Under the pieces are notes generated by a model. The model was not told where the DNA came from. It searched no databases and saw only the letters and a program-made list of their open reading frames with translations. From Escherichia phage UP19: DNA of 64,000 nucleotides. Position numbers and translations under genes: made by a program. This document shows, in pieces, positions 3,301 through 34,785 of this stretch. The stretch lies in the sequence record OX638288. One strand, written 5' to 3'. Within the stretch, counting starts at the first letter, position 1. Every line of letters begins with the position of its first letter.

Positions 3301-3404
3301 TTGAAGCCTGTATCGATGGGTGGGACGTTTTTAAATTCGGTGCTGCATGTTTTTGCTTTGGTATCGTGTTCAGCCTGTGTATGAATGGTATTTTTGGGAA
3401 GTAG
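3297..3404 (+). CDS. hypothetical 35-aa hydrophobic peptide (MIEACIDGWDVFKFGAACFCFGIVFSLCMNGIFGK)
   Basis: ATG overlaps pseT.2 stop (ATGA coupling); single predicted TM segment; below the 60-aa ORF-track cutoff. Confidence 0.3.
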   Translation: MIEACIDGWDVFKFGAACFCFGIVFSLCMNGIFGK

Positions 3405-3438
3405 TTTACAAACTCTTGGGAGCAGAGTATAATGCTCC
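3404..3438 (+). promoter_or_regulatory. T4-type early promoter (GTTTAC 3404-3409, TATAAT 3428-3433) with GGAGCA/TGCTCC inverted repeat bracketing the -10
   Basis: GTTTACA ... 18 nt ... TATAAT; inverted repeat 3419-3424 / 3433-3438. Confidence 0.55.
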
Positions 3439-3467
3439 TACGGATTATAAAAATTGAGGAAATTATT

Positions 3468-3946
3468 ATGACATTACGTGATAACAGTTTTGTGGCTAAG
3501 CCTGAATACATTTCAAGTATTAAATCTCCTGTATTACAAAAGCTCCTTAAACTAGGGTCCTGTGCAAGCACTCCTATTGAAAAGAAGGCAACTTTCGATT
3601 TTGCTTGGGCTATTGTGGACGGTATTGATGTAGTAAGACAGGTAACTTTTTATGCTCCAGGGTCTATTGAGCCTTCACAGATTATTAATTTGAACGGAAG
3701 TAATTATATTACCATCCAACAGTGGTATCGTATGATGCGACCTGTTTGGGAATACCCTGAATTCATTGAAGAGTACAATGAAAAAGAACGTATTCGTGAG
3801 CTAGTAAAAAGTTTTGAATACGCAGCTAAACGCCACGGCCAGATGCAGCAAGCTGTGGCTTTAGGTGATGTTGATGAAAAATCAGCATATGAAAGTGGTA
3901 AACTTCTGAAAACCTGTCGCGAAGAACTTTATAAGGAGCTTGGTGT

Positions 3947-7842: not shown

Positions 7843-8166
7843 ATGGAACTTCCTATTAAAGCGGTCGGAGAATATGTTATTCTCGTTTCCGAACCAAAAC
7901 AAGCTGGTGATGAAGAAACTACTGCATCTGGTATCGTTATTGGCAAACTTCATCAAGGTGAAATCCCTGAACTTTGTGAAATTTATTCTGTAGGACCTGA
8001 TGTCCCTGAAGGTTTTTGTGAAGTAGGTGATTTGACTCCACTTCCTGTTGGTAAGATTGCTAACGTGCCCCATCCGTTGGTTGCATTGGGTATTAAACAG
8101 CCTAAAGAAATTAAACAGAAATTCGTTACCTGTCACTATAAAGCTATTCCGTGTCTTTATAAGTGA
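7843..8166 (+). CDS. 31: GroES-like co-chaperonin for major capsid protein folding (gp31)
   Basis: 107 aa; ..[18 protein letters not shown].. and C-terminal ..[17 protein letters not shown] matching T4 gp31. Confidence 0.9.
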
Positions 8167-8174
8167 TATAAATA
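8167..8174 (+). promoter_or_regulatory. late promoter motif TATAAATA upstream of rIII
   Basis: Exact TATAAATA immediately after gene 31 stop. Confidence 0.45.
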
Positions 8175-8312
8175 ATAATATGGATTGGCTGCCGGACTAG
8201 TTAGTTAACCGGAGAATCCTAAGCGGTGGACTACAACTGAGAGACTTGCCGAAAGGAAGTGAAATTCAGAAGAACGTGTCCACCAATCTTTATCTCGAAT
8301 CGAGAATTTAAA

Positions 8313-8561
8313 ATGAACAAACATCTGAATCACGCTCTTGAACTGCAACGCAACGCTTGGAACAACGGTCACGAAAACTACGGCGCATCTATTGATGTTG
8401 AAGCCGAAGCACTGGAAATCCTGCGTTATTTCAAACATCTTAATCCGGCTCAGGCTACTCTGGCTGCTGAACTGGAAGCAAAAGATGAACTGAAATATGC
8501 TAAGCCTTTGGCTTCAGCAGCTCGTAAAGCAGTACGTCATTTTATTATTACCCTGAAGTAA
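8313..8561 (+). CDS. rIII: RIII lysis-inhibition accessory protein
   Basis: 82 aa from ATG 8313 (MNKHLNH..ELQRNAWNNGHENYGASIDVEAEALEILRYFKHL..) matching T4 RIII. Confidence 0.85.
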   Translation: MNKHLNHALELQRNAWNNGHENYGASIDVEAEALEILRYFKHLNPAQATLAAELEAKDELKYAKPLASAARKAVRHFIITLK

Positions 8562-8913
8562 AATCGAGGAGCCGTCGAACTGTCTGATTAATGATTTGCG
8601 AATCATTATAGTTTTAAGACCCCAGCAGTTTTACGGTGTACCTCTTGAATGTATTTTATAGCGGCAAGTGCATGCTACCCCGAGGTGATGGCCAATCGGG
8701 AGTACGCCTCAAGGCCTATATATCCATCAGTATATATCTTATCCTCGAGAAATCGAACCCGGAACCTTTAAGCTAACGGTGTGCAACAGATAAGAGCTAT
8801 GATGACGAGGTTTACGGTTATCCTGTCGTTAAATATCTAAAACCTATGTTCCCCTTGAGGGCTTGCGCAGGCAATGTCAATAAGTCCTGCATCCTAATTT
8901 AAGAGATTTAAAA
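8562..8913. other. 352-nt ORF-free region with several stem-loops; candidate structured RNA, regulatory region or decayed gene
   Basis: No ORF of 60 aa or more on either strand and frequent stops in all frames; largest non-coding gap in the window. Confidence 0.4.
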
Positions 8914-9075
8914 ATGGCTAAGAAAGAAGTTAAAGTAGTTGACGGAACCTCTAAACGCGCTGGTTACAAGCGTGCGTCTAACAAGCGTATCAATCAGGTA
9001 GTTGATAAGCTTCAAGCTCGTGCTCGTGCAGTATTGCGTGCAGATGCTGCTTGCTTCGGTAAAGTTATTGCATAA
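8914..9075 (+). CDS. hypothetical small basic protein (53 aa)
   Basis: ATG 8914, stop 9073-9075, immediately followed by a strong intrinsic terminator. Confidence 0.45.
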   Translation: MAKKEVKVVDGTSKRAGYKRASNKRINQVVDKLQARARAVLRADAACFGKVIA

Positions 9076-9080
9076 GTTAT

Positions 9081-9104
9081 GGGACTCTTCGGAGTCCCAT
9101 TTTT
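9081..9104 (+). terminator. rho-independent terminator (GGGACTC-TTCG-GAGTCCC + T-run)
   Basis: 7-bp perfect stem, TTCG loop, TTTTT at 9100-9104. Confidence 0.8.
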
Positions 9105-9129
9105 GTTTCTAAATCTTTAAAAAAAAAGG

Positions 9130-9161
9130 GTATACATCTCCGGTAGGCATGATACTATAGA
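9130..9161 (+). promoter_or_regulatory. early promoter-like element (GTATAC -35-like, TACTAT/TATAGA -10) preceded by an A-tract; cassette A
   Basis: A9 tract then GGTATACA..17 nt..TACTATAGA. Confidence 0.45.
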
Positions 9162-9202
9162 CATGTACCAAATAATACGAAAACAAACTGGAGAATAAAA
9201 TG
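9158..9202 (+). repeat. 45-nt leader repeat copy A (TAGACATGTACCAAATAATACGAAAACAAACTGGAGAATAAAATG)
   Basis: 44/45 identical to 9564-9608; ends in start codon of ORF 9200. Confidence 0.9.
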
Positions 9203-9532
9203 AAAACTGTAAACCTGAATGCATCTGTTAAAGCTAAATGTTTCAACGGTGAATATCAAGAAACCATGTGGGTCCTGACTGCAGTTGAAGGTGATATCAT
9301 CGAAGTTGAAACAACTGAAGGTATGGGTACTGATTTCACATTTACCATCGAGCTTCACAACTTCTTTACAGGTTGGATTTATGAACTGAAAACTGTAATT
9401 ACTGGTCGTATCGAAGAAAACAAAATTGGTGAATTCTATTACGTTAATGCCCGTACACGTGCTGAACGTCTGATTGCTCAGATGAAAAAAGTTGGTAAAC
9501 TTGATATGAAAAATTGGAATGTTGTGAAATAA
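9200..9532 (+). CDS. hypothetical protein
   Basis: 110-aa ORF behind leader copy A. Confidence 0.55.
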   Translation: MKTVNLNASVKAKCFNGEYQETMWVLTAVEGDIIEVETTEGMGTDFTFTIELHNFFTGWIYELKTVITGRIEENKIGEFYYVNARTRAERLIAQMKKVGKLDMKNWNVVK

Positions 9533-9535
9533 ATG

Positions 9536-9576
9536 TTTTACTTTGGTACAGGTTGTGTTATTATAGACCTGTACCA
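9536..9576 (+). promoter_or_regulatory. early promoter-like element (TTTTAC 9536-9541, TATTAT 9559-9564) with its -10 in the loop of an 8-bp inverted repeat (GGTACAGG 9546-9553 / CCTGTACC 9569-9576); cassette B
   Basis: Seen directly. Confidence 0.45.
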
Positions 9577-9608
9577 AATAATACGAAAACAAACTGGAGA
9601 ATAAAATG
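9564..9608 (+). repeat. 45-nt leader repeat copy B
   Basis: 44/45 identical to 9158-9202; ends in start codon of ORF 9606. Confidence 0.9.
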
Positions 9609-9971
9609 AACTACATCAACTTCGAACGTAAATATGTTTCTAACGGTAACGCTGGTTCTTCTGAAGTTATTTGTCTGTGGAAACACAACAACGGCACAGT
9701 GTGCGAAATCGAACAGTGCATGACTCCTAACTACGTTTATATGCGCTTTGAAAATGGTATCACGGTTTCAATCACTATGGAAGGTTCTACTTTTAAAATC
9801 GCTTTGGATGATGATTTCCGTCAACGTGATTTAGGCACCCATCCTTGCTGGAACGGTGATAATCGTAAGCTTCTGGTTAAAACCTGGATTCGTCACATCC
9901 TGAGCAACCGTGCTAAACCTGAACACCTGGAAGCAATCTTTGTTGTAGTTCTGAATGAATTTGATATCTAA
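9606..9971 (+). CDS. hypothetical protein
   Basis: 121-aa ORF behind leader copy B; unrelated in sequence to ORF 9200. Confidence 0.55.
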   Translation: MNYINFERKYVSNGNAGSSEVICLWKHNNGTVCEIEQCMTPNYVYMRFENGITVSITMEGSTFKIALDDDFRQRDLGTHPCWNGDNRKLLVKTWIRHILSNRAKPEHLEAIFVVVLNEFDI

Positions 9972-9981
9972 TCTTAAAAAT

Positions 9982-10000
9982 GGAGGCTTCGGCCTCCTTT
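9982..10000 (+). terminator. stem-loop GGAGGC-TTCG-GCCTCC + TTT (terminator or attenuator)
   Basis: 6-bp GC stem with TTCG loop right after stop of ORF 9606. Confidence 0.6.
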
Positions 10001-10012
10001 GAGGAAAATATT

Positions 10013-10300
10013 ATGTTTATGACCACTTATTTCGATACTCGTAAAAATTTCTGTGAAGTTGTTTTCTCTAAGGCAGGTAAAGATGTTCCTGCTGACAAAC
10101 AGCCTACTCGTGAATCCATTAAGGCCTATGCTGATGTGGTTTGTCCAGTAGAATTCCGTACAGTCAATGGTCGTGACACCCTAGCAATCACTAAGCTCAA
10201 CCGCGATATTAACATCGACCCAAGTGTCGCCCGCGAAGTCAATACTTCTGACATCTACGGCGGTAATGTTAAATCACATGGATTTCAGATGAGGTTCTAA
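10013..10300 (+). CDS. hypothetical protein
   Basis: 95-aa ORF from ATG 10013 with SD GAGG; the track's earlier start at 9980 lies inside the terminator hairpin. Confidence 0.5.
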   Translation: MFMTTYFDTRKNFCEVVFSKAGKDVPADKQPTRESIKAYADVVCPVEFRTVNGRDTLAITKLNRDINIDPSVAREVNTSDIYGGNVKSHGFQMRF

Positions 10301-10494
10301 TGCAACTATTCTTATCACAAACCGTTCAGTTAAAAGGTATAGGTATTCCTGGTATGATTTCAAAGGTTCTACCTGCTTTTAAAATTAACGGTAAAGTAAT
10401 TAAAGAAGCCTATGCAGTCCTGTGGGTCGACGGAACTGAAGACGTGCGCATGGGTTCTGAATTGTCTGTAATCAAATGTTTGAAGCGAGGATAA
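10300..10494 (+). CDS. hypothetical protein
   Basis: 64-aa ORF, coupled. Confidence 0.4.
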   Translation: MQLFLSQTVQLKGIGIPGMISKVLPAFKINGKVIKEAYAVLWVDGTEDVRMGSELSVIKCLKRG

Positions 10495-10495
10495 T

Positions 10496-10711
10496 ATGGT
10501 CAAGAAACTGATTCAGAAATTGTTAGGTACGGAAATGGTTGAAGTGACTTATCGTGTGACTGATGTTTCTCCTCATACGGCGGACCATTTAGAACCTTAT
10601 ATCATGACAATTAAAATGCCTAAACATGACGGTGGTTTATCCATTGAAGACCGACTGCCTGGTTATGGTTATTGGGCTGATGTCGAAATTATAAGTGTCA
10701 AAGATGTCTGA
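10496..10711 (+). CDS. hypothetical protein
   Basis: 71-aa ORF. Confidence 0.4.
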   Translation: MVKKLIQKLLGTEMVEVTYRVTDVSPHTADHLEPYIMTIKMPKHDGGLSIEDRLPGYGYWADVEIISVKDV

Positions 10712-13804: not shown

Positions 13805-15892
13805 ATGACCGAACAATTGAATGAGGTGTTTGAGTCCGAAGGCACCCTGCCTACTGTAAACTTAAACCCAAAACTTAAAGTACCCCAGATTTGGAAGATT
13901 GGCGACGCCGAATCCCAATTAGTTGCTCGTATGGTATCTTATGCCTCTGAAGGCGATGCTATTAAACAGGTTAAATTAGGTGATAAATATGCCCACGTTA
14001 TTTTGATGAGTTTATCAGCTAAAGGTACTCCAGCCGAACTTAAAGGTGGATTAGGCCTTACTCCTATTGATGCTATTAATACCATTTTCGACGTAGTATT
14101 CGAACAAGTTAAAAAGCTTCGTATGGATGCTGTGATGTTCCGTTTTCCAACCAAGAAAATGAAAGGACAAGGACCTATTGTCCAACGGATTATCCAACGT
14201 TTGGTAGCACAGAAAACCGGTGGACGTTTTAAAGTAGTTCCAGCCATGTACCAATTTACCGGTAAACATACTTATATCCTAGTAGTGCGTAAACAAGCTG
14301 ATATCGAAGATATCAAAGGTATGCCTGGAATTAATGCCGAATTATATACTAAGGTAGATTCTGATGTTGGTGAAGTTTATATTTCTAAAAAAGAAGGCGC
14401 TCAGGTTACTAAAGAAACCGCTATTGCCGGCAGTATTGCTAAAGTTGAAGAACGTCGCACTGATAAAATGGTTATAACCAAGACTAAGATTTCTCGTCGT
14501 GCGATTGCGGCAAGCCAGTCATTAGAAGCAGACCGTAATGAAGGTGAATTATTTCAGAAATATGAACAAACTGCCAATGAGTTCAGTGCGCCTGCTACGG
14601 CGGAATTAATTCCACAAGCAGTCGAAGTTGAATTATCATTATCATCCGAAACAGCTAAGGATAAGCTGGCTACGGCTATTGATTTTAAAATTTATAATAC
14701 TATGGATGATTCATTTAAATTTGCGGATGAAGTTTCTTACGGTGATAAAATTAACTCTTCTTTAGAAAAATTTGTCAAAAAAATTAAAAATGAAAAAACC
14801 ACGTCAGTTAAAGCTTTAGCCGCCTTTGTTGAAGCTGCTAATGAAATCGCAGAATCTATTAAAAGTGATTGGTTTGAAGATTATAGAAAAGACAATTTCC
14901 ATTTGGAAAAAGAGATATTGAATGAAAACAGTGAAAGAGTATGGAAACAACGTAAGTCTTCATTCTTGTCTAAGATAATGTATACATACGCTATAGAATC
15001 AACTAGAGAAATTCTTAATATAACAACATCTCGAGACCCTAAACAATATACACTTGCAGAAAAACGAGCTATCAGAGAATACGCCTCTTCAGCTTATATT
15101 GATATTAACAATGTCCTTCTTGGCCGTTATAAACCGGGCTTTTATGAAGTTTTGGACGAAAGCGAAGTTAAACGTGCTATTGATGGAATGGATTCTGCCT
15201 TTAAAAATGGTGACCGTTTACCTGAAGGAATAATGGTTTATAGAGCACAATCTTTGCGCGCGCCTATCTACGAAGCATTAGTTAAAAATAAGGTATTCTA
15301 TTTTAGAAACTATGTTTCAACCTCATTGGCCCCAATCATTTTTGGTGGCTTTAAAGAGAATGCGGCTATTGGTCTTGCTTCCGATGATGTTCGAAAAGAA
15401 TTAAACATTGATAATAATGACGAAGGCGTTACCATCTCGGCTAGTCAAGTGCGTACACATATGTATGCGCCGGATCAAATCCGTGTTGATGTTGGCTGGG
15501 CTATTAGTGGCGCTCATAAGGTTAACGTGATTTATCCTGGCCAATTAAGCATGCATGCCAACGAAAAGGAAATAATTTTACCACGCGGGCTACTTGTAAA
15601 AATAGATAAAATCGTGGATGCATCAGCCAATACTGGTTCTGGGGCGGTGTCTAACAATAAATTTATTCAAGCTGAAGTTATGACATCAGATGAGCTTCAA
15701 GAATCTGTAGTGTATGATGGTGACGTACTAATGGAAACCGGCGAGTTGGTTGTGTATCAAGATGATTTCGATACTTCCGAAAGCCCTGTATCTTTTGATT
15801 CATTTGTTAAATCTACACGGTTTGATGTACTGCCTCTTTTGGCTTCATGCATAGACCTCTATGGCATCCCAGAAAAATTCATCCAAGGGTAA
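13805..15892 (+). CDS. alt: Alt-type ADP-ribosyltransferase, paralog 1 (virion-packaged, RNA-polymerase-modifying family)
   Basis: 695 aa; Alt-like N-terminus; C-terminal R-S-E ART signature (..YRAQS.. / ..VSTSL.. / ..EIILPRGL..). Confidence 0.9.
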   Translation: MTEQLNEVFESEGTLPTVNLNPKLKVPQIWKIGDAESQLVARMVSYASEGDAIKQVKLGDKYAHVILMSLSAKGTPAELKGGLGLTPIDAINTIFDVVFEQVKKLRMDAVMFRFPTKKMKGQGPIVQRIIQRLVAQKTGGRFKVVPAMYQFTGKHTYILVVRKQADIEDIKGMPGINAELYTKVDSDVGEVYISKKEGAQVTKETAIAGSIAKVEERRTDKMVITKTKISRRAIAASQSLEADRNEGELFQKYEQTANEFSAPATAELIPQAVEVELSLSSETAKDKLATAIDFKIYNTMDDSFKFADEVSYGDKINSSLEKFVKKIKNEKTTSVKALAAFVEAANEIAESIKSDWFEDYRKDNFHLEKEILNENSERVWKQRKSSFLSKIMYTYAIESTREILNITTSRDPKQYTLAEKRAIREYASSAYIDINNVLLGRYKPGFYEVLDESEVKRAIDGMDSAFKNGDRLPEGIMVYRAQSLRAPIYEALVKNKVFYFRNYVSTSLAPIIFGGFKENAAIGLASDDVRKELNIDNNDEGVTISASQVRTHMYAPDQIRVDVGWAISGAHKVNVIYPGQLSMHANEKEIILPRGLLVKIDKIVDASANTGSGAVSNNKFIQAEVMTSDELQESVVYDGDVLMETGELVVYQDDFDTSESPVSFDSFVKSTRFDVLPLLASCIDLYGIPEKFIQG

Positions 15893-15895
15893 ATA

Positions 15896-18019
15896 ATGGA
15901 AAATTTAAACGAGGTTTTTGATAGTGATTCCGCTAAAAACTATCCAGTAACAAATCTTAAACCAGGTTCCGGTATTCCACAGATTTTCTCTATCCAAGCA
16001 CCAGGTAATGATAATCTGGTTGCTCGTATGGTATCTTATGCGTCTCAAGGAGACGCTATTAAAATGGTTAAGCCTGGCGACAAATACGTTCATGTTATTT
16101 TGATGAGTTTGTCTAGCAAGGGTGCTCCGGCTGAACTCAAAGGTGGCCTTGGTTCTGACCCACTTGGTACACTGAATACTATTTTCGATACTGTATACGA
16201 ACAAGTAAACAAACTTAAAATGGATGCAGTTTTGTTCCGTTTCCCTACCAAGAAAATGAAAGGTAAGGGTCCTACCGTTCAGCGTGTATTAGCTCGTTTG
16301 GTGATGGCACGTACCGGTGGTAAGTTTAAAGTTGTCGATGATATGTTCCAGTTTAGTGGTAAACATACATACGTTCTTTTAGTACGTCGTGGTTCTAATA
16401 TCGAAGATATCAAGGGTATGCCTGAAATTGATGCCGATCTTTATACCAAGGTTGAGTCTAAAGTTGGCGAAGTTTATGTTTCTAAGAAAACAGGCCAGGC
16501 CGTAAGTAAGGTCGAAGCCGTAGCGGCATCTATCGCCCAGGTTGAAGAAAAACGTACCGATAAGGCTGTCATCTCTCGTACTAAGATTTCCCGTCGTATG
16601 GCTGCAGCAGCGCAGTATTCTACTTCCGAACCTGAAACTTTATCCCCTAAAGAATTGCAGGTTTATAATGAGTTTGAAGCTTCTGTACCTGTTCATTCGG
16701 CTGAAGGTCCTGAGAACGAAGGTATTGAACAGATTAGCCAGAACTTTAAAAAAGGTGCTATTACTAAAATGCGTCAGGCCTCTCAGTTTAAATCTAAGAG
16801 TGAGGACCTTGCCAACTTTAGATACACCATTGCTCTCACGCACGCTTTAATGACTGATAGTAAATTTAAACTAAATTATGCTAATAGAGATAAACAAGGG
16901 TTTGAAATTTACTCTAATAATATGGCATTTTTTAATACAGAAGTCGATAGACTTTTAAGTGGCCTTTCTCAAATCAATACTACCAATAGTCTGGATATTA
17001 TTAAGAGAATTGTTAATAACCTGAGCGCCCGTTTTCAGGGATCTCCTTCAGAGAAAGCATCCCGAATTGCTTTCGCTATGGAAGCCGTTTATAAACTGAT
17101 TAACGATTCTATTGGCGATGCGTATGCTTATTCAGGTGAGCTCATTAAACCTAAGGGCTTGACTAAAGACGAAAGCAATGCTATTATTGAATATTGCGCA
17201 GCTGAATATGCTCCTATGAACTTATTCCTTTTAGGTAAACCTGAATCCGAAAACAATACAACGGCTATTAAATTGATTAAGGATTTAGACTCAGCATTTA
17301 CTAAGGGTATTAAACTCCCTAAGGGTACTATTTTGTATCGTGGTCAGGATTTGCCATACAAAATTCTGCGTCATAATATCGATAACAAAACATTTTACTT
17401 TAAGAACTTTGTGTCAGCCTCATTAAAGCCTAACATCTTTGGTGAATTCGGTAAAAATTATATGGCCCTCGACAACCAAGCCGTTTTTGTTGGTGGTGAA
17501 GGTTCTTTATCCTCCGCTGATGAGTTGTTTAAATTGGCTAGTGGTAGTTCATCTGATGTGGGTGAAGTCGATGACGAAGAGGTAGAATGGGAAGAAGACG
17601 AGTTTGGTAATCCAATTGCACCTGAAGGCCCTGCAGACAGGATTGCTGAAATCGGTATGGTTATTCGAGGTGCTGAAGCAGTTAAAGTTATCGCTCCTGG
17701 CGACCTTACAGAATATGCTGAAGAAGCAGAAATTATCCTTCCGCGTGGATTATTGATGAAGGTTGATAAAGTAGCGGCTTTTGCTATGAATGATAGGGTA
17801 TCTCACAAATACCTTATGGAAGCTACAGTGACGTCTCCTTCAGAACTCAGTGAATCCGTTTACGATGGCGACCATCTGATGGAAACTGGCGAAGTTAAAT
17901 TGATGAATGGGTTTAAAGAATTCCTAGTTTCAGAATCTGTTTCAGAAAGTAATGAGGCTATGGAAATCCTTGCTGCATCTTTGGACATCTCTTCTTTATC
18001 AAATAAATTCAAAATGTAG
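15896..18019 (+). CDS. Alt-type ADP-ribosyltransferase, paralog 2
   Basis: 707 aa; N-terminal 150 aa closely similar to paralog 1, divergent middle, R-S-E signature retained (..YRGQD.. / ..VSASL.. / ..EIILPRGL..). Confidence 0.85.
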   Translation: MENLNEVFDSDSAKNYPVTNLKPGSGIPQIFSIQAPGNDNLVARMVSYASQGDAIKMVKPGDKYVHVILMSLSSKGAPAELKGGLGSDPLGTLNTIFDTVYEQVNKLKMDAVLFRFPTKKMKGKGPTVQRVLARLVMARTGGKFKVVDDMFQFSGKHTYVLLVRRGSNIEDIKGMPEIDADLYTKVESKVGEVYVSKKTGQAVSKVEAVAASIAQVEEKRTDKAVISRTKISRRMAAAAQYSTSEPETLSPKELQVYNEFEASVPVHSAEGPENEGIEQISQNFKKGAITKMRQASQFKSKSEDLANFRYTIALTHALMTDSKFKLNYANRDKQGFEIYSNNMAFFNTEVDRLLSGLSQINTTNSLDIIKRIVNNLSARFQGSPSEKASRIAFAMEAVYKLINDSIGDAYAYSGELIKPKGLTKDESNAIIEYCAAEYAPMNLFLLGKPESENNTTAIKLIKDLDSAFTKGIKLPKGTILYRGQDLPYKILRHNIDNKTFYFKNFVSASLKPNIFGEFGKNYMALDNQAVFVGGEGSLSSADELFKLASGSSSDVGEVDDEEVEWEEDEFGNPIAPEGPADRIAEIGMVIRGAEAVKVIAPGDLTEYAEEAEIILPRGLLMKVDKVAAFAMNDRVSHKYLMEATVTSPSELSESVYDGDHLMETGEVKLMNGFKEFLVSESVSESNEAMEILAASLDISSLSNKFKM

Positions 18020-20452: not shown

Positions 20453-22189
20453 CTAATTAACTTTAGTAGCTTGACGCATACCAGGAGCAGGAGTGGAAGA
20501 CTGAGGCGGCAAATTATAACTAGTCTTACTCGTTTTCTTGATATTCGTTTGCTGATTTATTTGAGTTGGAGCTTGCTGACTATATTTAGCATTTTCCTTT
20601 GCTCTCATTTGCTCGTCAACCTTTTTAACCTGGGTATTTTCAGGAGATTCCGCTACAGAAGCAGGTTTAGGCTTTTCAGCTTCGTTAAATTTCTCTAAAG
20701 ATTTATTCATCTTATCAAGTAATTGCTGGATATTAAGGTCTTTCGGTGCTCCACCTTTAGCCATAATAGGGTCAGCTAATTGTTTCTCGATATCCGCTTT
20801 AAATGCCTTAGCATTTTCGATATCTTTAGAATCGGGCTTCATTATATTATCGGCGGTTTGGGTTAAACGGATAATATCAGCCTGAGCTTTATCACGTTTC
20901 TTAAAATACTCTAAACGTTCTTCTTCAGGGAGGTCACGGAAGCTTGTGTCAATTCCGCCAGCGCGTAATTGGTCGGCTTGTTCTTTAGTAAGGTTACCGT
21001 ATTTCTCTGCCTGGTTTATAAGCTCAGGTTTACCCTTATACTTCTTATTCATTTTCTCGGCTGTTTCTAAAGCCTCAGCTGAACGTCTATCATGGTACTT
21101 GGCTACTTTAGTTTGGTCTTCGTCATCTAAAGTGGCTCCGGTATTTTGTTGATACGACATTAAAGCGGATGCCTCTACGTTTTCAGCCAAATCACCCATA
21201 CCAGGTATTTTACTTAAAATAGCAGAAATCAATTTAGAAATACCGAGCATTAACAGTTGTGCCATATTTTTGGTAAGATTAACCATACCGCGAATAATAG
21301 CTTCTGCCAGACCTAGCCAATTTCTTTCGCTAAACATAGCTTCAGCATTCTTGGCCCAGGTCATTAAGCCTTCAAGTACGGGTCCCCACTCTTTAAACTT
21401 ATCGTTAAATTTTTTCCATCCTTCATTAAATTGGTCCATGAAATATTGGAAGTATACACGAATAGCATCTATACCAAATATTAAAAGGGCTAGGCCTGCA
21501 GCCAGTTTAGCGGCTTCTGCAGCAGCAGTAATAGTATACTTAAAAAGCATACCTGAAATTCTATCAGCCACGCCCACAGAGGCTTTAAATCCTTTTTCGG
21601 TTATTTTTGTAAGGGCTTCGATTTTATCAGAAAGAGAAGACTTGTCACCTTCTTTACCTTCATTTGAATTTTTAGGAGGTTCTGGTACAAATTCAGCGTC
21701 AGGTTTATTATCTTCAGGCGGAAGAATATCTTCAATAACAGCAGGAACTTTAGGAGTTTCAGCCTTAGGTTCTTCAGGAATAGAGTCTTCAATAACCTTT
21801 AACGAGCTCCCTTCCGGCGGAATAGAAATACCAGAGAATTTAGCCTCCAACATATTAGAAAGCTTATTAATCTTTTCGTTTAATGCATCCGAAAGAGCTT
21901 TAGATTGTTGGGTTTGTTCTGATATAGCTTCGGCCGTTAATTCTGTTCCGGCGACAACATCTTGAACACTTTTATCTACTCGGTCTATAGAATTAATAAT
22001 CTGATTAGACTTTGTTTCAACAACTTCAGAGAGCAATTCAGACGCCGCCTGGGTTTCTGATAAAGCTTCTGTTATATTTCCTAATTCGTCGTTCTGGGTT
22101 TGGGCTAGCGCCTCAGCACGACGCTGAGGAGCCATTTCTTCAATCAGTTTATTGCGACGAAAACTATTCTGATTAGATTCATTCTTCAT
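20453..22189 (-). CDS. 29: baseplate hub / tail length tape-measure protein (gp29)
   Basis: 578 aa (T4 gp29 is 590 aa); extended, Ala/Glu/Lys-rich N-terminal half; gene order. Confidence 0.85.
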   Translation of the reverse strand: MKNESNQNSFRRNKLIEEMAPQRRAEALAQTQNDELGNITEALSETQAASELLSEVVETKSNQIINSIDRVDKSVQDVVAGTELTAEAISEQTQQSKALSDALNEKINKLSNMLEAKFSGISIPPEGSSLKVIEDSIPEEPKAETPKVPAVIEDILPPEDNKPDAEFVPEPPKNSNEGKEGDKSSLSDKIEALTKITEKGFKASVGVADRISGMLFKYTITAAAEAAKLAAGLALLIFGIDAIRVYFQYFMDQFNEGWKKFNDKFKEWGPVLEGLMTWAKNAEAMFSERNWLGLAEAIIRGMVNLTKNMAQLLMLGISKLISAILSKIPGMGDLAENVEASALMSYQQNTGATLDDEDQTKVAKYHDRRSAEALETAEKMNKKYKGKPELINQAEKYGNLTKEQADQLRAGGIDTSFRDLPEEERLEYFKKRDKAQADIIRLTQTADNIMKPDSKDIENAKAFKADIEKQLADPIMAKGGAPKDLNIQQLLDKMNKSLEKFNEAEKPKPASVAESPENTQVKKVDEQMRAKENAKYSQQAPTQINQQTNIKKTSKTSYNLPPQSSTPAPGMRQATKVN

Positions 22190-32229: not shown

Positions 32230-33502
32230 CTAGTGGTGGAAGTTTAACACCAAGATAAGAACTCAACTGGCTTTGGTTAGCCATTTTGTCCATATCAGAG
32301 CCATCAATAATGCGGGCTTCTTTATAGTCCTTAGCGACGGTATAAGGGTTTGCAGTCAATGCATAACGAGCAAGCAATGCTACTGTAGGTTGTAAGCTTT
32401 CCGGGTCAACAATAACCTTAAATTCACCTACTGAAGTATCCCCTTCCTCATCAACCTCATTCAAACCTTCCGTATAAGGCGCATAATATAAAGATGCGAC
32501 TGTCTGTCCTTCACCCATCTGAGCATTTACACCAACAATAACATAATCACATGGACTATTCATATCAGCATAAAGAGGCAGACCATTCTTTAATACACCA
32601 TAAGCCAGTTCGTCCTGGTCTTCCTTTTTCTCAACCCAACCAGAAGCGGCGAGAATAGCAGCACAACGAGAACTAGCTACTGCATAAGTCCCGGCGAAAG
32701 AAGTTTGACGTTGGACGGCAGAGTTCATCTCACACATGTAATAATATAATGTACGAGCACGGTCCTGGGCATTATCGTAACGTGGGTTGGTAAGGTCTAA
32801 TACACCCTTTTCAGAAACACCCTGGACTTTAAAACGAGAACTCACCGTAATTAATGACTGCAATACGTCCTTATTAATTTCTTCTGCCATTTGAATGCCT
32901 AGCAGATTTTCAACGAAATTAGGAGCATTAAACCCATTTGATTCTAGGTCTTGGGCCAATTCGACTGTCAAAGAAGTTTTCAGTTTACGTGATTTAACCT
33001 CAGATTGCCATTTATCAATACGGAAGCCTGCTTCAGCAATTTCAGGGTGACCTTGTTCAAATTTAGAAGTAATAGCAGCATCTGATACCATACGAATATG
33101 CCCAGCGGCCACTGCTTCAGAAATAACTTCACCGAGGTCGGTTTCTGTGGTTCCGGCGAAAGGAGATGCTTCTAGAACTTTAAACACTACACTTTCAAAT
33201 TGGAACATATCGCCGGCTGCATAAGCTGTAGACGAATCGGTAAATTCAGGAATATTTTCACGTTCCGACATACCAATCTGGCCTGCAAATGTAGCGCCAC
33301 CAAGATAAGTCATTTTGTCGTCGGGATTAAGTACACGAATCCCGTACAGAGCGGCAACAGGTTGGCTTGTTTTTTGTTCAGCAACTAGGGCTTTAAAGAT
33401 TCGTTTATTAGTTGCTTGGGTGTATGAAAGAAGAGCAGGACGGCCAACCGAGTTGGCAGCCGTCAATGTGGATTCTTTAATTAGGTCTATAATCTTAGAC
33501 AT
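32222..33502 (-). CDS. head vertex protein paralog (second gp24-like gene)
   Basis: 426 aa; alignable end to end with adjacent gp24 (shared blocks RKLKT.LTVELAQD.ESNGF.AP.F.E.LL...MA.EINKDVLQSLITVS; YAPYTEGL; VIVDP.SLQP). Confidence 0.8.
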   Translation of the reverse strand: MSKIIDLIKESTLTAANSVGRPALLSYTQATNKRIFKALVAEQKTSQPVAALYGIRVLNPDDKMTYLGGATFAGQIGMSERENIPEFTDSSTAYAAGDMFQFESVVFKVLEASPFAGTTETDLGEVISEAVAAGHIRMVSDAAITSKFEQGHPEIAEAGFRIDKWQSEVKSRKLKTSLTVELAQDLESNGFNAPNFVENLLGIQMAEEINKDVLQSLITVSSRFKVQGVSEKGVLDLTNPRYDNAQDRARTLYYYMCEMNSAVQRQTSFAGTYAVASSRCAAILAASGWVEKKEDQDELAYGVLKNGLPLYADMNSPCDYVIVGVNAQMGEGQTVASLYYAPYTEGLNEVDEEGDTSVGEFKVIVDPESLQPTVALLARYALTANPYTVAKDYKEARIIDGSDMDKMANQSQLSSYLGVKLPPLEK

Positions 33503-34785
33503 TAATCAGCCTCGTAAATAATTGCTGGAAGTTTAACACCAAGCAGATAAGACATATTGCTCTGACCAGCCATTAAATCCATATTGGTTGCATCGATAAC
33601 ACGAGCTTCTTTATCGTCTTTAGCTACGGTGTACGGGTTAGCGGACAGTGCATAACGAACCATCAGAGAAATAGAAGGCTGTAATGAATCAGGGTCGACA
33701 ATAACCTTATAAGCACCAACGTGTTCTTGGTCATCTAAATCCAGGCCTTCTGTGTATGGGGCATAGAAAATAGAACCGACAACTTCATTACCTCCATAGT
33801 TCTCTTTAACACCTACGATAACATAATCCAATGGGCTGTTAACGTCACAGAACAGAGGTAATCCATTCAACAAATAACCATAGGCAGTTTCTGGGAGCCA
33901 ATTATTATCTTCAGGTTTATGTTTTAACCAGCCAGAACCTGCAAGCATTGCAGCCACACGACTTGAAGCCACAACAAACGTGCCGGAATAAGAAGTAGTT
34001 TTCTGGATTTCAGAATTCATCTCACAAACAATTTCATAAAGTTTACGTGCGGATTCCGGAGCACTGGCATAAGTCAAATCGATGATGCCATTATCAGATA
34101 CACCAGTAACTTTATAGCGTTTAGATACGGTTATTAGAGATTGCAGAACGTCTTTATTAATTTCATCTGCCATTACTGTAGCCAGGAGGTCTTCTAAGAA
34201 TGCAGGGGCGTCGAAGCCATTTGATTCCATATCCTGTGCCAATTCTACGGTCAAAGCAGTCTTCAATTTACGGGTCTTAACAGGAGCATTCCATTTATTA
34301 ACCTGGAATACGGCGTCAGAGATTTCTACATCACTCGCTTCGAATTTAGTGGTATGAGCAGCGTCCGGAACCAGACGACATGTTAATGACACCAAACCTT
34401 CTTGAAGAGCATCAGCCAATCCTGTAGCGCTAGTAGATGCGAGTGGGCTTGCTTGAAGAGCCTTATAAACCACATTCTGATACTTAAAGTAGTCACCCTT
34501 GGCAATAGCCTGGGCTTTATCTGTGAGTTCCTGGATAGTTTCACGGTCTTTAGAACCAACTTCACCACCATAAACAGCACCAGTTTGGAAACTGAATTCA
34601 TTATCAGGGGTAAGATATTTGACACCATACAATGCAGCAATAGGCTGACTAGTACGTTGTTCAGCGATGATATCGCGATAAATTAGTTTAGTGGTAGCAC
34701 GGGTCAAAGCAACAAGATTAGGGCGACCCAATGAGTTGCTGGTAGTAGTTGTTGACTCGCGCAGTAATTCGTTAATCTTTGCCAT
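33502..34785 (-). CDS. 24: head vertex protein gp24
   Basis: 427 aa (T4 gp24 is 427 aa); N-terminus MAKINELLRESTTT..; gene order 23-segD-24. Confidence 0.9.
   Translation of the reverse strand: MAKINELLRESTTTTSNSLGRPNLVALTRATTKLIYRDIIAEQRTSQPIAALYGVKYLTPDNEFSFQTGAVYGGEVGSKDRETIQELTDKAQAIAKGDYFKYQNVVYKALQASPLASTSATGLADALQEGLVSLTCRLVPDAAHTTKFEASDVEISDAVFQVNKWNAPVKTRKLKTALTVELAQDMESNGFDAPAFLEDLLATVMADEINKDVLQSLITVSKRYKVTGVSDNGIIDLTYASAPESARKLYEIVCEMNSEIQKTTSYSGTFVVASSRVAAMLAGSGWLKHKPEDNNWLPETAYGYLLNGLPLFCDVNSPLDYVIVGVKENYGGNEVVGSIFYAPYTEGLDLDDQEHVGAYKVIVDPDSLQPSISLMVRYALSANPYTVAKDDKEARVIDATNMDLMAGQSNMSYLLGVKLPAIIYEAD

Follow-up and report, generated by a model that had tools for sequence, protein, structure and literature searches.

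Near-identical early leaders before the unrelated genes 30.8 and 30.7 of Escherichia phage UP19: a probable ancestral copying event at PeSL-type elements

The stretch of Escherichia phage UP19 DNA analyzed here (sequence record OX638288; 64,000 nucleotides, called the window throughout) contains two consecutive genes that code for unrelated proteins and are preceded by leaders of almost the same sequence, which raises the question of how two neighboring leaders came to be alike and what their likeness means for the genes behind them. An earlier note had read the two leaders as promoter-early-stem-loop (PeSL) cassettes carrying novel ORFs, and the pair as the probable mark of a recent insertion or duplication. 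The two copies and the elements within them are as follows.

9150..9204, + strand: repeat copy 1 (55 nt), containing the extended -10, start region, A-rich leader, Shine-Dalgarno (SD) sequence, and ATG of gene 30.8
9161-9172, + strand: orphan half-palindrome ACATGTACCAAA in the start region of copy 1
9190..9200, + strand: GGAGAATAAAA, the SD of 30.8, an exact match to the strong RegB/S1 consensus
9556..9610, + strand: repeat copy 2 (55 nt), containing the extended -10, start region, leader, SD, and ATG of gene 30.7
9596..9606, + strand: GGAGAATAAAA, the SD of 30.7, an exact match to the strong RegB/S1 consensus

The likeness noted earlier is confirmed: positions 9158-9202 and 9564-9608 are mismatched at a single site out of 45 (A9163 versus C9569), and ungapped extension takes the repeat to 55 nt at 95% identity. 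With up to three mismatches allowed, the 45-nt leader has just two matches in the 64-kb window and none in 100 shuffles, which rules out chance or low complexity as its source. Each repeat takes in, in order, the extended -10 of an early promoter, the start region, an A-rich unstructured 5' untranslated region (5'UTR), GGAGAATAAAA, and the ATG; both leaders terminate in GGAGAATAAAATG, with GGAG, 6 nt, and ATG at the 3' end. From the expected start sites onward they are less structured than shuffles (RNA fold z = +1.6 and +1.7), and an Rfam scan of 8100-10600 at E≤1 gives no match to a known structured RNA, either for the leader or between rIII and 30.9.

The 55-nt pair (repeat family D6) is the sole near-identical repeat of its kind in the 64 kb. 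Other repeats in the window are more diverged. Tandem ORFs of ~700 aa at 13805-15892 and 15896-18019 include repeats D1 (74%) and D3 (83%) at a spacing of 2097, and their counterparts in phage dhaeg are annotated as two ADP-ribosyltransferases (alt paralogues); a 198-nt direct repeat (D2; 32234-32431 and 33523-33720, 72% identity, spacing 1289) probably reflects paralogous genes. Elements at 2113, 3404, 18019, and 34828 form a looser leader family (D7). Among these, 2113-2172 is an early-promoter-like element in which the promoter spacer TCTCCTCAT and the downstream Shine-Dalgarno ATGAGGAGA form a stem of 9 bp, and 3404-3468 is another, with GGAGCA/TGCTCC around the -10 TATAAT.

At this locus the window is 99% identical to phages MN04 and JS98 (Dhakavirus, Straboviridae), and by that identity it is that of a JS98-like Dhakavirus, a T4-type phage. 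The JS98 annotation names the two ORFs genes 30.8 and 30.7.

8914..9075, + strand: gene 30.9 (53 aa), the upstream neighbor (ORF list; JS98 annotation; phrog_1427)
9200..9532, + strand: gene 30.8 (110 aa), T4/JS98-type allele (PF06019, Phage_30_8, E = 2.8e-48)
9606..9971, + strand: gene 30.7 (121 aa) (PF06919, Phage_T4_Gp30_7, E = 2e-50)

The window gp30.9 is 100% identical to that of JS98 (tblastn). Gp30.8 shares 78 to 79% amino acid identity with its T4 and Lutter counterparts and ~40% with an RB69/IME08-type allele, and gp30.7 is 88 to 98% identical across Tequatro-, Mosig-, Gapriver-, and Dhakavirus. That the two proteins are unrelated, as the earlier note held, is borne out: gp30.8 and gp30.7 give zero BLASTP alignments at E≤100 and belong to distinct Pfam families. 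A tandem gene duplication with diverged ORFs is ruled out by this absence of protein similarity and the different families, and is also contradicted by T4, in which both genes are present and the leaders differ. The order rIII-30.9-30.8-30.7-30.6-30.5 is common to T4, Lutter, JS98, VR5, Bp7, SP18, and HX01, with 30.6A inserted between 30.9 and 30.8 in SP18 and an additional ORF of ~290 nt between 30.6 and 30.5 in VR5 and QL01. Both ORFs being Pfam-assigned T4 genes in conserved order from T4 to HX01, the cargo, though unrelated, cannot be called novel, and the notion of novel ORFs has to be dropped. In T4, 30.7 and 30.8 are of the early class at both the RNA and protein levels (PMC9697503 supplements). 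Our literature search on 30.7, 30.8, and 30.9 returned no relevant paper, and the main text of the T4 transcription papers is silent on 30.7 and 30.8.

We note that the gap between rIII and 30.9 (8562-8913) comprises ~350 nt without an annotated gene and with ORFs of only 40 to 46 aa. Its left part (~8600-8797) is unaligned in many close Dhakaviruses; WG01, MX01, and QL01 match from query position 199, Bp7-type phages match the gap query in two pieces, and the gap is ~90 nt shorter in Bp7, QL01, and IME281. Phage dhaeg (locus 21452-21889) carries two adjacent 30.4-like ORFs of the same VOG.

The same comparisons bear on whether a mobile PeSL cassette was recently inserted or duplicated and brought a novel ORF into UP19, which we regard as highly improbable. 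Both ORFs belong to old Pfam families named for T4 genes, and the order 30.9-30.8-30.7-30.6 is shared by four genera, a synteny that already largely refutes the proposal; the upstream promoter halves are orthologous to those of other genera. The PeSL architecture of the elements argues in its favor, as does a promoter/leader (55 nt) of ~80 to 82% similarity before an unrelated 71-aa ORF in the Jiaodaviruses JD18 and Metamorpho. The leader pair is, however, found in all Dhakavirus genomes examined: the leader occurs at ≥95% in ~48 database records, at two places in each record among the matches listed. The exact leader is found in only six IMG/VR contigs, of ~155 to 172 kb and all Dhakavirus-like, where it is present either singly or twice at a distance of 406 or 443 nt; no other cargo stands behind it in the IMG/VR scan, and JGI metagenome contigs have none with the exact leader. 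A recent arrival is thus not borne out. In the relatives the leader is tied largely to one conserved gene pair with constant cargo, the outcome that the earlier note had itself set against its reading, with the two 30.8 alleles described below as the exception.

The sequence in Klebsiella phage JD18 (locus 1440-1550 and 1765-1843) and in Metamorpho reads GTATAC-N17-TACTAT-AGACCTGTACC...GGAGAATAAAATGAAAACT and is ~80 to 82% identical to the window. The 71-aa ORF behind this leader adjoins nrdC.10, and the gene that follows it has a PeSL of its own, with a GGAGCT/AGCTCC stem around the -10 and the GGAGAATAAAATG box.

Each repeat copy is the downstream part of a larger control element, and the two elements differ in their upstream parts.

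9079..9110, + strand: intrinsic terminator downstream of 30.9 (9-bp stem, UUCG loop), then TTTTTGTTT
9113..9158, + strand: putative early promoter P30.8 (T4-type promoter scan)
9119-9127, + strand: A-tract of P30.8
9131-9136, 9150-9152, and 9153-9158, + strand: -35 TATACA (GTATAC from 9130), TGn, and -10 TACTAT of P30.8
9536..9564, + strand: putative early promoter P30.7 (generic scan hit with TG; T4-type scan)
9537-9542, 9556-9558, and 9559-9564, + strand: -35 TTTACT, TGn, and -10 TATTAT of P30.7
9542-9553 and 9567-9578, + strand: perfect inverted repeat of 12 nt, TTTGGTACAGGT / ACCTGTACCAAA, on either side of the P30.7 -10
9982..9997, + strand: GGAGGC-UUCG-GCCUCC hairpin between 30.7 and 30.6 (-15 kcal/mol, z = -3.1)

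P30.8 (TATACA-16-TACTAT plus TGn) agrees with the T4/PST consensus at 11 of 12 positions and falls below the threshold of a generic sigma-70 scan, its -35 being degenerate (TATACA); Gaprivervirus VR25 has a perfect GTTTAC at the orthologous position. P30.7 (TTTACT-16-TATTAT plus TGn) is conserved from T4 to Dhakavirus. The annotation of phage Lutter places promoters at the sites orthologous to both, and P30.8 and P30.7 are each putatively active as early promoters.

These elements have the published PeSL layout, which consists of an AT-rich tract, a T4-type -35 and -10, a stem-loop, a Shine-Dalgarno, and ATG (PMC2839356; PMC4122927), so the earlier assignment of PeSL architecture stands. In the T4/PST form the promoter consensus is TTTACW..TAYWAT and the stem-loop lies just upstream of the promoter (PMC4122927). 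PeSL promoters are sigma-70-like, with a -35 and a -10 at ~17 nt; at P30.7 and P30.8 the two hexamers stand 16 nt apart, and upstream of them, as in PeSL members, are GAAATAAATG and TTTAAAAAAAAA, respectively. A stem-loop belongs to each: at P30.7 it is formed by the 12-bp repeat, and at P30.8 by the terminator hairpin at 9079-9100, ~30 nt upstream of copy 1. The latter, together with its T-run, is a terminator-scan hit and a canonical intrinsic terminator (-15.2 kcal/mol, z = -4.3). The location is hyperplastic, as seen in the dimorphism of 30.8, its loss in Mosigvirus JM10, 30.6A of SP18, and the extra ORF of VR5 and QL01. The PeSL papers (PMC2839356 and PMC4122927) make no mention of 30.7, 30.8, or Dhakavirus, and refer to JS98 for the gene 43 locus only.

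Of the two copies, only copy 2, with its perfect 12-nt repeat (z = -3.5), bears out the claim of a -10 in or next to an inverted repeat; in copy 1 the best stem is 5 bp and folding is no better than in shuffles (z = -0.13). Copy 1 retains just the 3' arm (ACATGTACCAAA) of the P30.7 palindrome. The palindrome core GGTACAGG/CCTGTACC is the same throughout the relatives apart from one change that is compatible with a G.U pair. With so constant a core, the P30.7 stem shows neither covariation nor compensatory changes across relatives, and a structural role for it in RNA or DNA is at most putative. The terminator hairpin placed after the second ORF likewise stands in part. The hairpin at 9982-9997 is stable, but TTT alone follows it on the + strand, and it therefore lacks the T-run on the transcribed strand that, after a G+C-rich stem, defines an intrinsic terminator; the terminator scan lists it on the - strand only. 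We note that 30.6A of SP18 (locus 614-670) starts directly after the 30.9 terminator with AGGAAAATATTATG, and that the same SD-start string precedes 30.6 after the UUCG hairpin of the window (10001-10015). As judged from these two places, AGGAAAATATTATG is a second case of unrelated ORFs with a common hairpin-plus-SD junction.

Comparison across genera separates the shared from the lineage-specific parts. Over the 48 nt before ATG, the 30.8 and 30.7 leaders of the same genome are identical at 44 to 45 positions in Dhakavirus (JS98, Bp7, QL01, and IME281), in contrast to 17 to 20 in Tequatrovirus (T4 and Lutter), 19 to 22 in Gaprivervirus (SP18 and VR25), and 18 in Mosigvirus (HX01). Outside Dhakavirus the two leaders differ except for the SD-ATG box, having mainly GGAGAATAAAATG in common, whereas the P30.7 -35, the palindrome core GGTACAGG..CCTGTACC, and the -10 are conserved in Tequatro-, Gapriver-, Mosig-, and Dhakavirus. 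The near-identity is, on these alignments, specific to Dhakavirus, and the homogenized leader is the only lineage-specific part. Among the Dhakavirus loci compared, copy 2 varies only in VR5 (locus ~2440-2518), in which the 30.7 leader is shared up to AAAACAAAC and is followed by a differing SD region, CAAAGGATAATAAAATG. Copy 1 has acquired private substitutions in several lineages (ACT in QL01 and IME281, ACA in IME08, CCGG in dhaeg, and GACC in IME341). A third match place for the IME341 30.9-30.7 query is seen in dhaeg and CLB_P2, with no leader copy within 20 kb on either side of it.

This pattern is best explained if a leader was copied once in the ancestor of Dhakavirus and the two copies then diverged in the ordinary way. 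Copying probably ran from P30.7 to P30.8, because P30.8 has no more of the P30.7 palindrome than an orphan 3' half. A half-palindrome, TATAGACNTGTACC, is present at P30.8 in Mosigvirus HX01 and in Dhakavirus and absent in Tequatrovirus and Gaprivervirus, and the nearest outgroup leader is that of Gaprivervirus P30.7 (36 of 41 positions), either HX01 leader giving 34 of 42. The direction is weak, since it is founded on the half-palindrome and the difference between 36/41 and 34/42.

The SD boxes raise the alternative that the leaders are kept alike by function. In T4 early mRNAs the strong RegB/S1 site has the consensus GG*AGRAYARAA (Uzan and Miller review, PMC3014915), and the window has two exact matches in its 64 kb, both of them the SDs of 30.8 and 30.7. 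Both 11-nt boxes lie in leaders predicted to be unstructured, within intergenic translation-initiation regions of early genes, and regB is annotated in JS98, the nearest relative. We found no report of RegB cleavage at the 30.8 or 30.7 SD boxes of any phage. The identity might then be no neutral footprint of recombination but be maintained by selection for a shared cis-regulatory 5'UTR, such as an operator or processing signal, under which 30.8 and 30.7 are co-regulated; GGAGAATAAAATG fits the RegB consensus and precedes both genes unchanged in every genus compared, as well as two unrelated ORFs of JD18, and copy 2 is nearly unchanged across Dhakavirus. We nonetheless consider selection of this kind improbable as the explanation. 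Beyond the 13-nt SD box, the T4, Mosigvirus, and Gaprivervirus leaders differ (13 to 15 of 20 to 21 aligned mid-part positions), and because the same genes in other genera have quite different leaders, no specific leader sequence is required. The leader is also without predicted structure or an Rfam match, private substitutions (ACT, ACA, and CCGG) have accrued in copy 1 of several lineages, and selection alone cannot make an identity of 45/48, for which a copying event is still needed. What the invariance of the box suggests is that a RegB-type SD kept by selection doubles as recombination microhomology.

Exchange at this locus is indicated by gene 30.8, which has two alleles, a T4/JS98-type (110 aa) and an RB69/IME08-type (122 aa). 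Dhakavirus has both, the JS98-type in 32 records at ≥90% and the RB69-type in IME08, IME341, dhaeg, CLB_P2, C6, PSD9, and others; Tequatrovirus also has both, as seen in T4 versus teqdroes, fHoEco02, and others. IME341, IME08, and dhaeg combine the Dhakavirus leader pair with an RB69-type 30.8. In IME341, identity to the window falls at ~9195 and resumes at ~9553, and over this interval the sequence is 92 to 100% identical to Mosigvirus HX01 in its first ~60 nt and its last ~80 nt and 72 to 95% identical over the whole. In teqdroes the T4 promoter and leader are unchanged to GGAGAATAAAATGAAA, where they are joined to the RB69-type ORF, and the T4-type promoter is back from the P30.7 -35 on the right side. 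Mosigvirus JM10 is without 30.8 and has a single hybrid promoter, whose part upstream of the -10 is that of Mosigvirus P30.8; at the -10 it is fused to the leader of Dhakavirus, behind which stands a Dhakavirus-like 30.7.

From these alignments, crossovers appear to map to the 16-nt invariant SD-ATG box and to P30.7, and the comparison with related genomes that had been proposed as a check on cassette boundaries does place apparent recombination junctions within the elements. The earlier reading is, on this evidence, partly right, in that the UP19 elements appear to be of PeSL type and to mark recombination-prone boundaries. JM10 also changes parent within the 30.7 ORF, close to 9772, and again at the hairpin between 30.7 and 30.6; because these junctions lie outside the elements, the control elements may be just conserved islands for general homologous recombination. 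Searching 728 records for the JM10 junction finds it in one piece in JM10 alone, and this deletion, as a single record, could be a laboratory or assembly event. Taken together, the control sequences behave as resident, genus-specific homology arms that flank an exchanged 30.8 ORF, and not as a mobile cassette.

Recombination between the copies might also be continuous, with repeated gene conversion and frequent excision of 30.8 as a 406-bp circle taking the place of a single event. Recombination is very active in T4-type phages, PeSL mini-circles have been shown for RB49 and phi1 (PMC2839356), and copy 1 of IME341 has C at the position that distinguishes the copies (GACCTG). There is, in our view, only a small chance that such concerted evolution accounts for the repeats, for the private substitutions of copy 1 in QL01/IME281, IME08, and dhaeg and the replaced copy 2 SD of VR5 all stand uncorrected; moreover, no Dhakavirus record lacking 30.8 was seen, and the sole deletion among the 728 records is that of JM10.

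We therefore return to a single copying event, and it is with reasonable confidence that we read the repeats as the downstream halves of two sigma-70 early promoters, made alike by one ancestral leader copying, with the elements then serving as homology arms. The likeness would be one of descent: in the Dhakavirus ancestor, two promoter elements that were already similar would have undergone ectopic homologous recombination or gene conversion, and one leader would thereby have overwritten the other. The conserved control sequences would from then on have been available as short homology arms between which the 30.8 ORF could be exchanged or lost, and crossovers in the SD-ATG box and P30.7 would amount to modular shuffling of the PeSL type.

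The functional part of this account (promoters, open leader, RegB-type SD, and read-through hairpin) is inferred from the sequence and from knowledge of T4. Host RNA polymerase would start ~7 nt past each -10, near 9165 and 9571, to give an A-rich, unstructured 5'UTR of ~35 nt with a GGAG SD 6 nt before the AUG. Such an open leader and SD should support strong early translation, and as RegB accumulates the 30.8 and 30.7 messages would probably be inactivated together, because GGAGAATAAAA is a perfect strong RegB/S1 site. The P30.7 12-bp hairpin, 10 nt after the 30.8 stop, probably acts on RNA reading through from P30.8 as a 3' end, attenuator, or stabilizer. A more elaborate reading, in which the palindrome, its half-copy at P30.8, the shared leader, and the RegB box form a dedicated module with active excision of 30.8, is rather unlikely. 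If it were true, the hairpin would link termination or stabilization of the upstream transcript to initiation at the downstream promoter, or serve as the binding site of a factor; gp30.8 and gp30.7 would, through their identical leaders, be expressed and shut off in strict coordination; and in infected cells 30.8 would be actively cut out, by way of the 55-nt direct repeats, as a 406-bp circle.

Among the closest known counterparts are the T4 promoters of the same genes. They share with those of UP19 their positions and genes, the P30.7 -35, the palindrome GGTACAGG..CCTGTACC, the -10, and the SD-ATG box; in contrast, the T4 leaders are unrelated to each other but for GGAGAATAAA(A)ATG (17/48), and the T4 P30.8 leader is without the half-palindrome, unlike that of UP19. 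With the RegB/S1 sites of T4 the UP19 boxes have in common the exact 11-nt consensus, unstructured intergenic leaders of early genes, and a relative that carries regB, but they differ in being candidate sites known from the sequence match alone.

With PeSLs both UP19 elements share the intergenic composite layout, P30.7 matching the phi1/RB49 class, in which the stem overlaps the -10, and P30.8 the PST/T4 class, in which a terminator hairpin lies just upstream. In the published mini-circles the crossovers lie between the -10 and SD (Arbiol et al. 2010, PMC2839356), and in the UP19 relatives, too, an ORF has been swapped or lost at apparent crossovers that fall between the -35/-10 and SD/ATG. 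Unlike in PeSLs, the flanked UP19 genes are conserved family genes and not ORFans, and the two elements share their downstream halves only, at a near-identity that is not described as typical.

Repoila et al. are said, in PMC4122927, to have described in 1994 the exchange of unrelated ORFs at conserved regulatory sequences of the T-even internal-protein locus. There, by that account, alternative ORFs likewise stand between conserved control sequences in close relatives, and the difference from 30.8/30.7 is one of locus. The Dhakavirus 30.8/30.7 pair is an addition to the PeSL catalogue rather than a new kind of element, and the locus offers a small, clean natural example of accessory-gene shuffling in T4-type phages, in which promoter and leader stay genus-specific while 30.8 swaps between alleles of ~40% identity in at least two genera.
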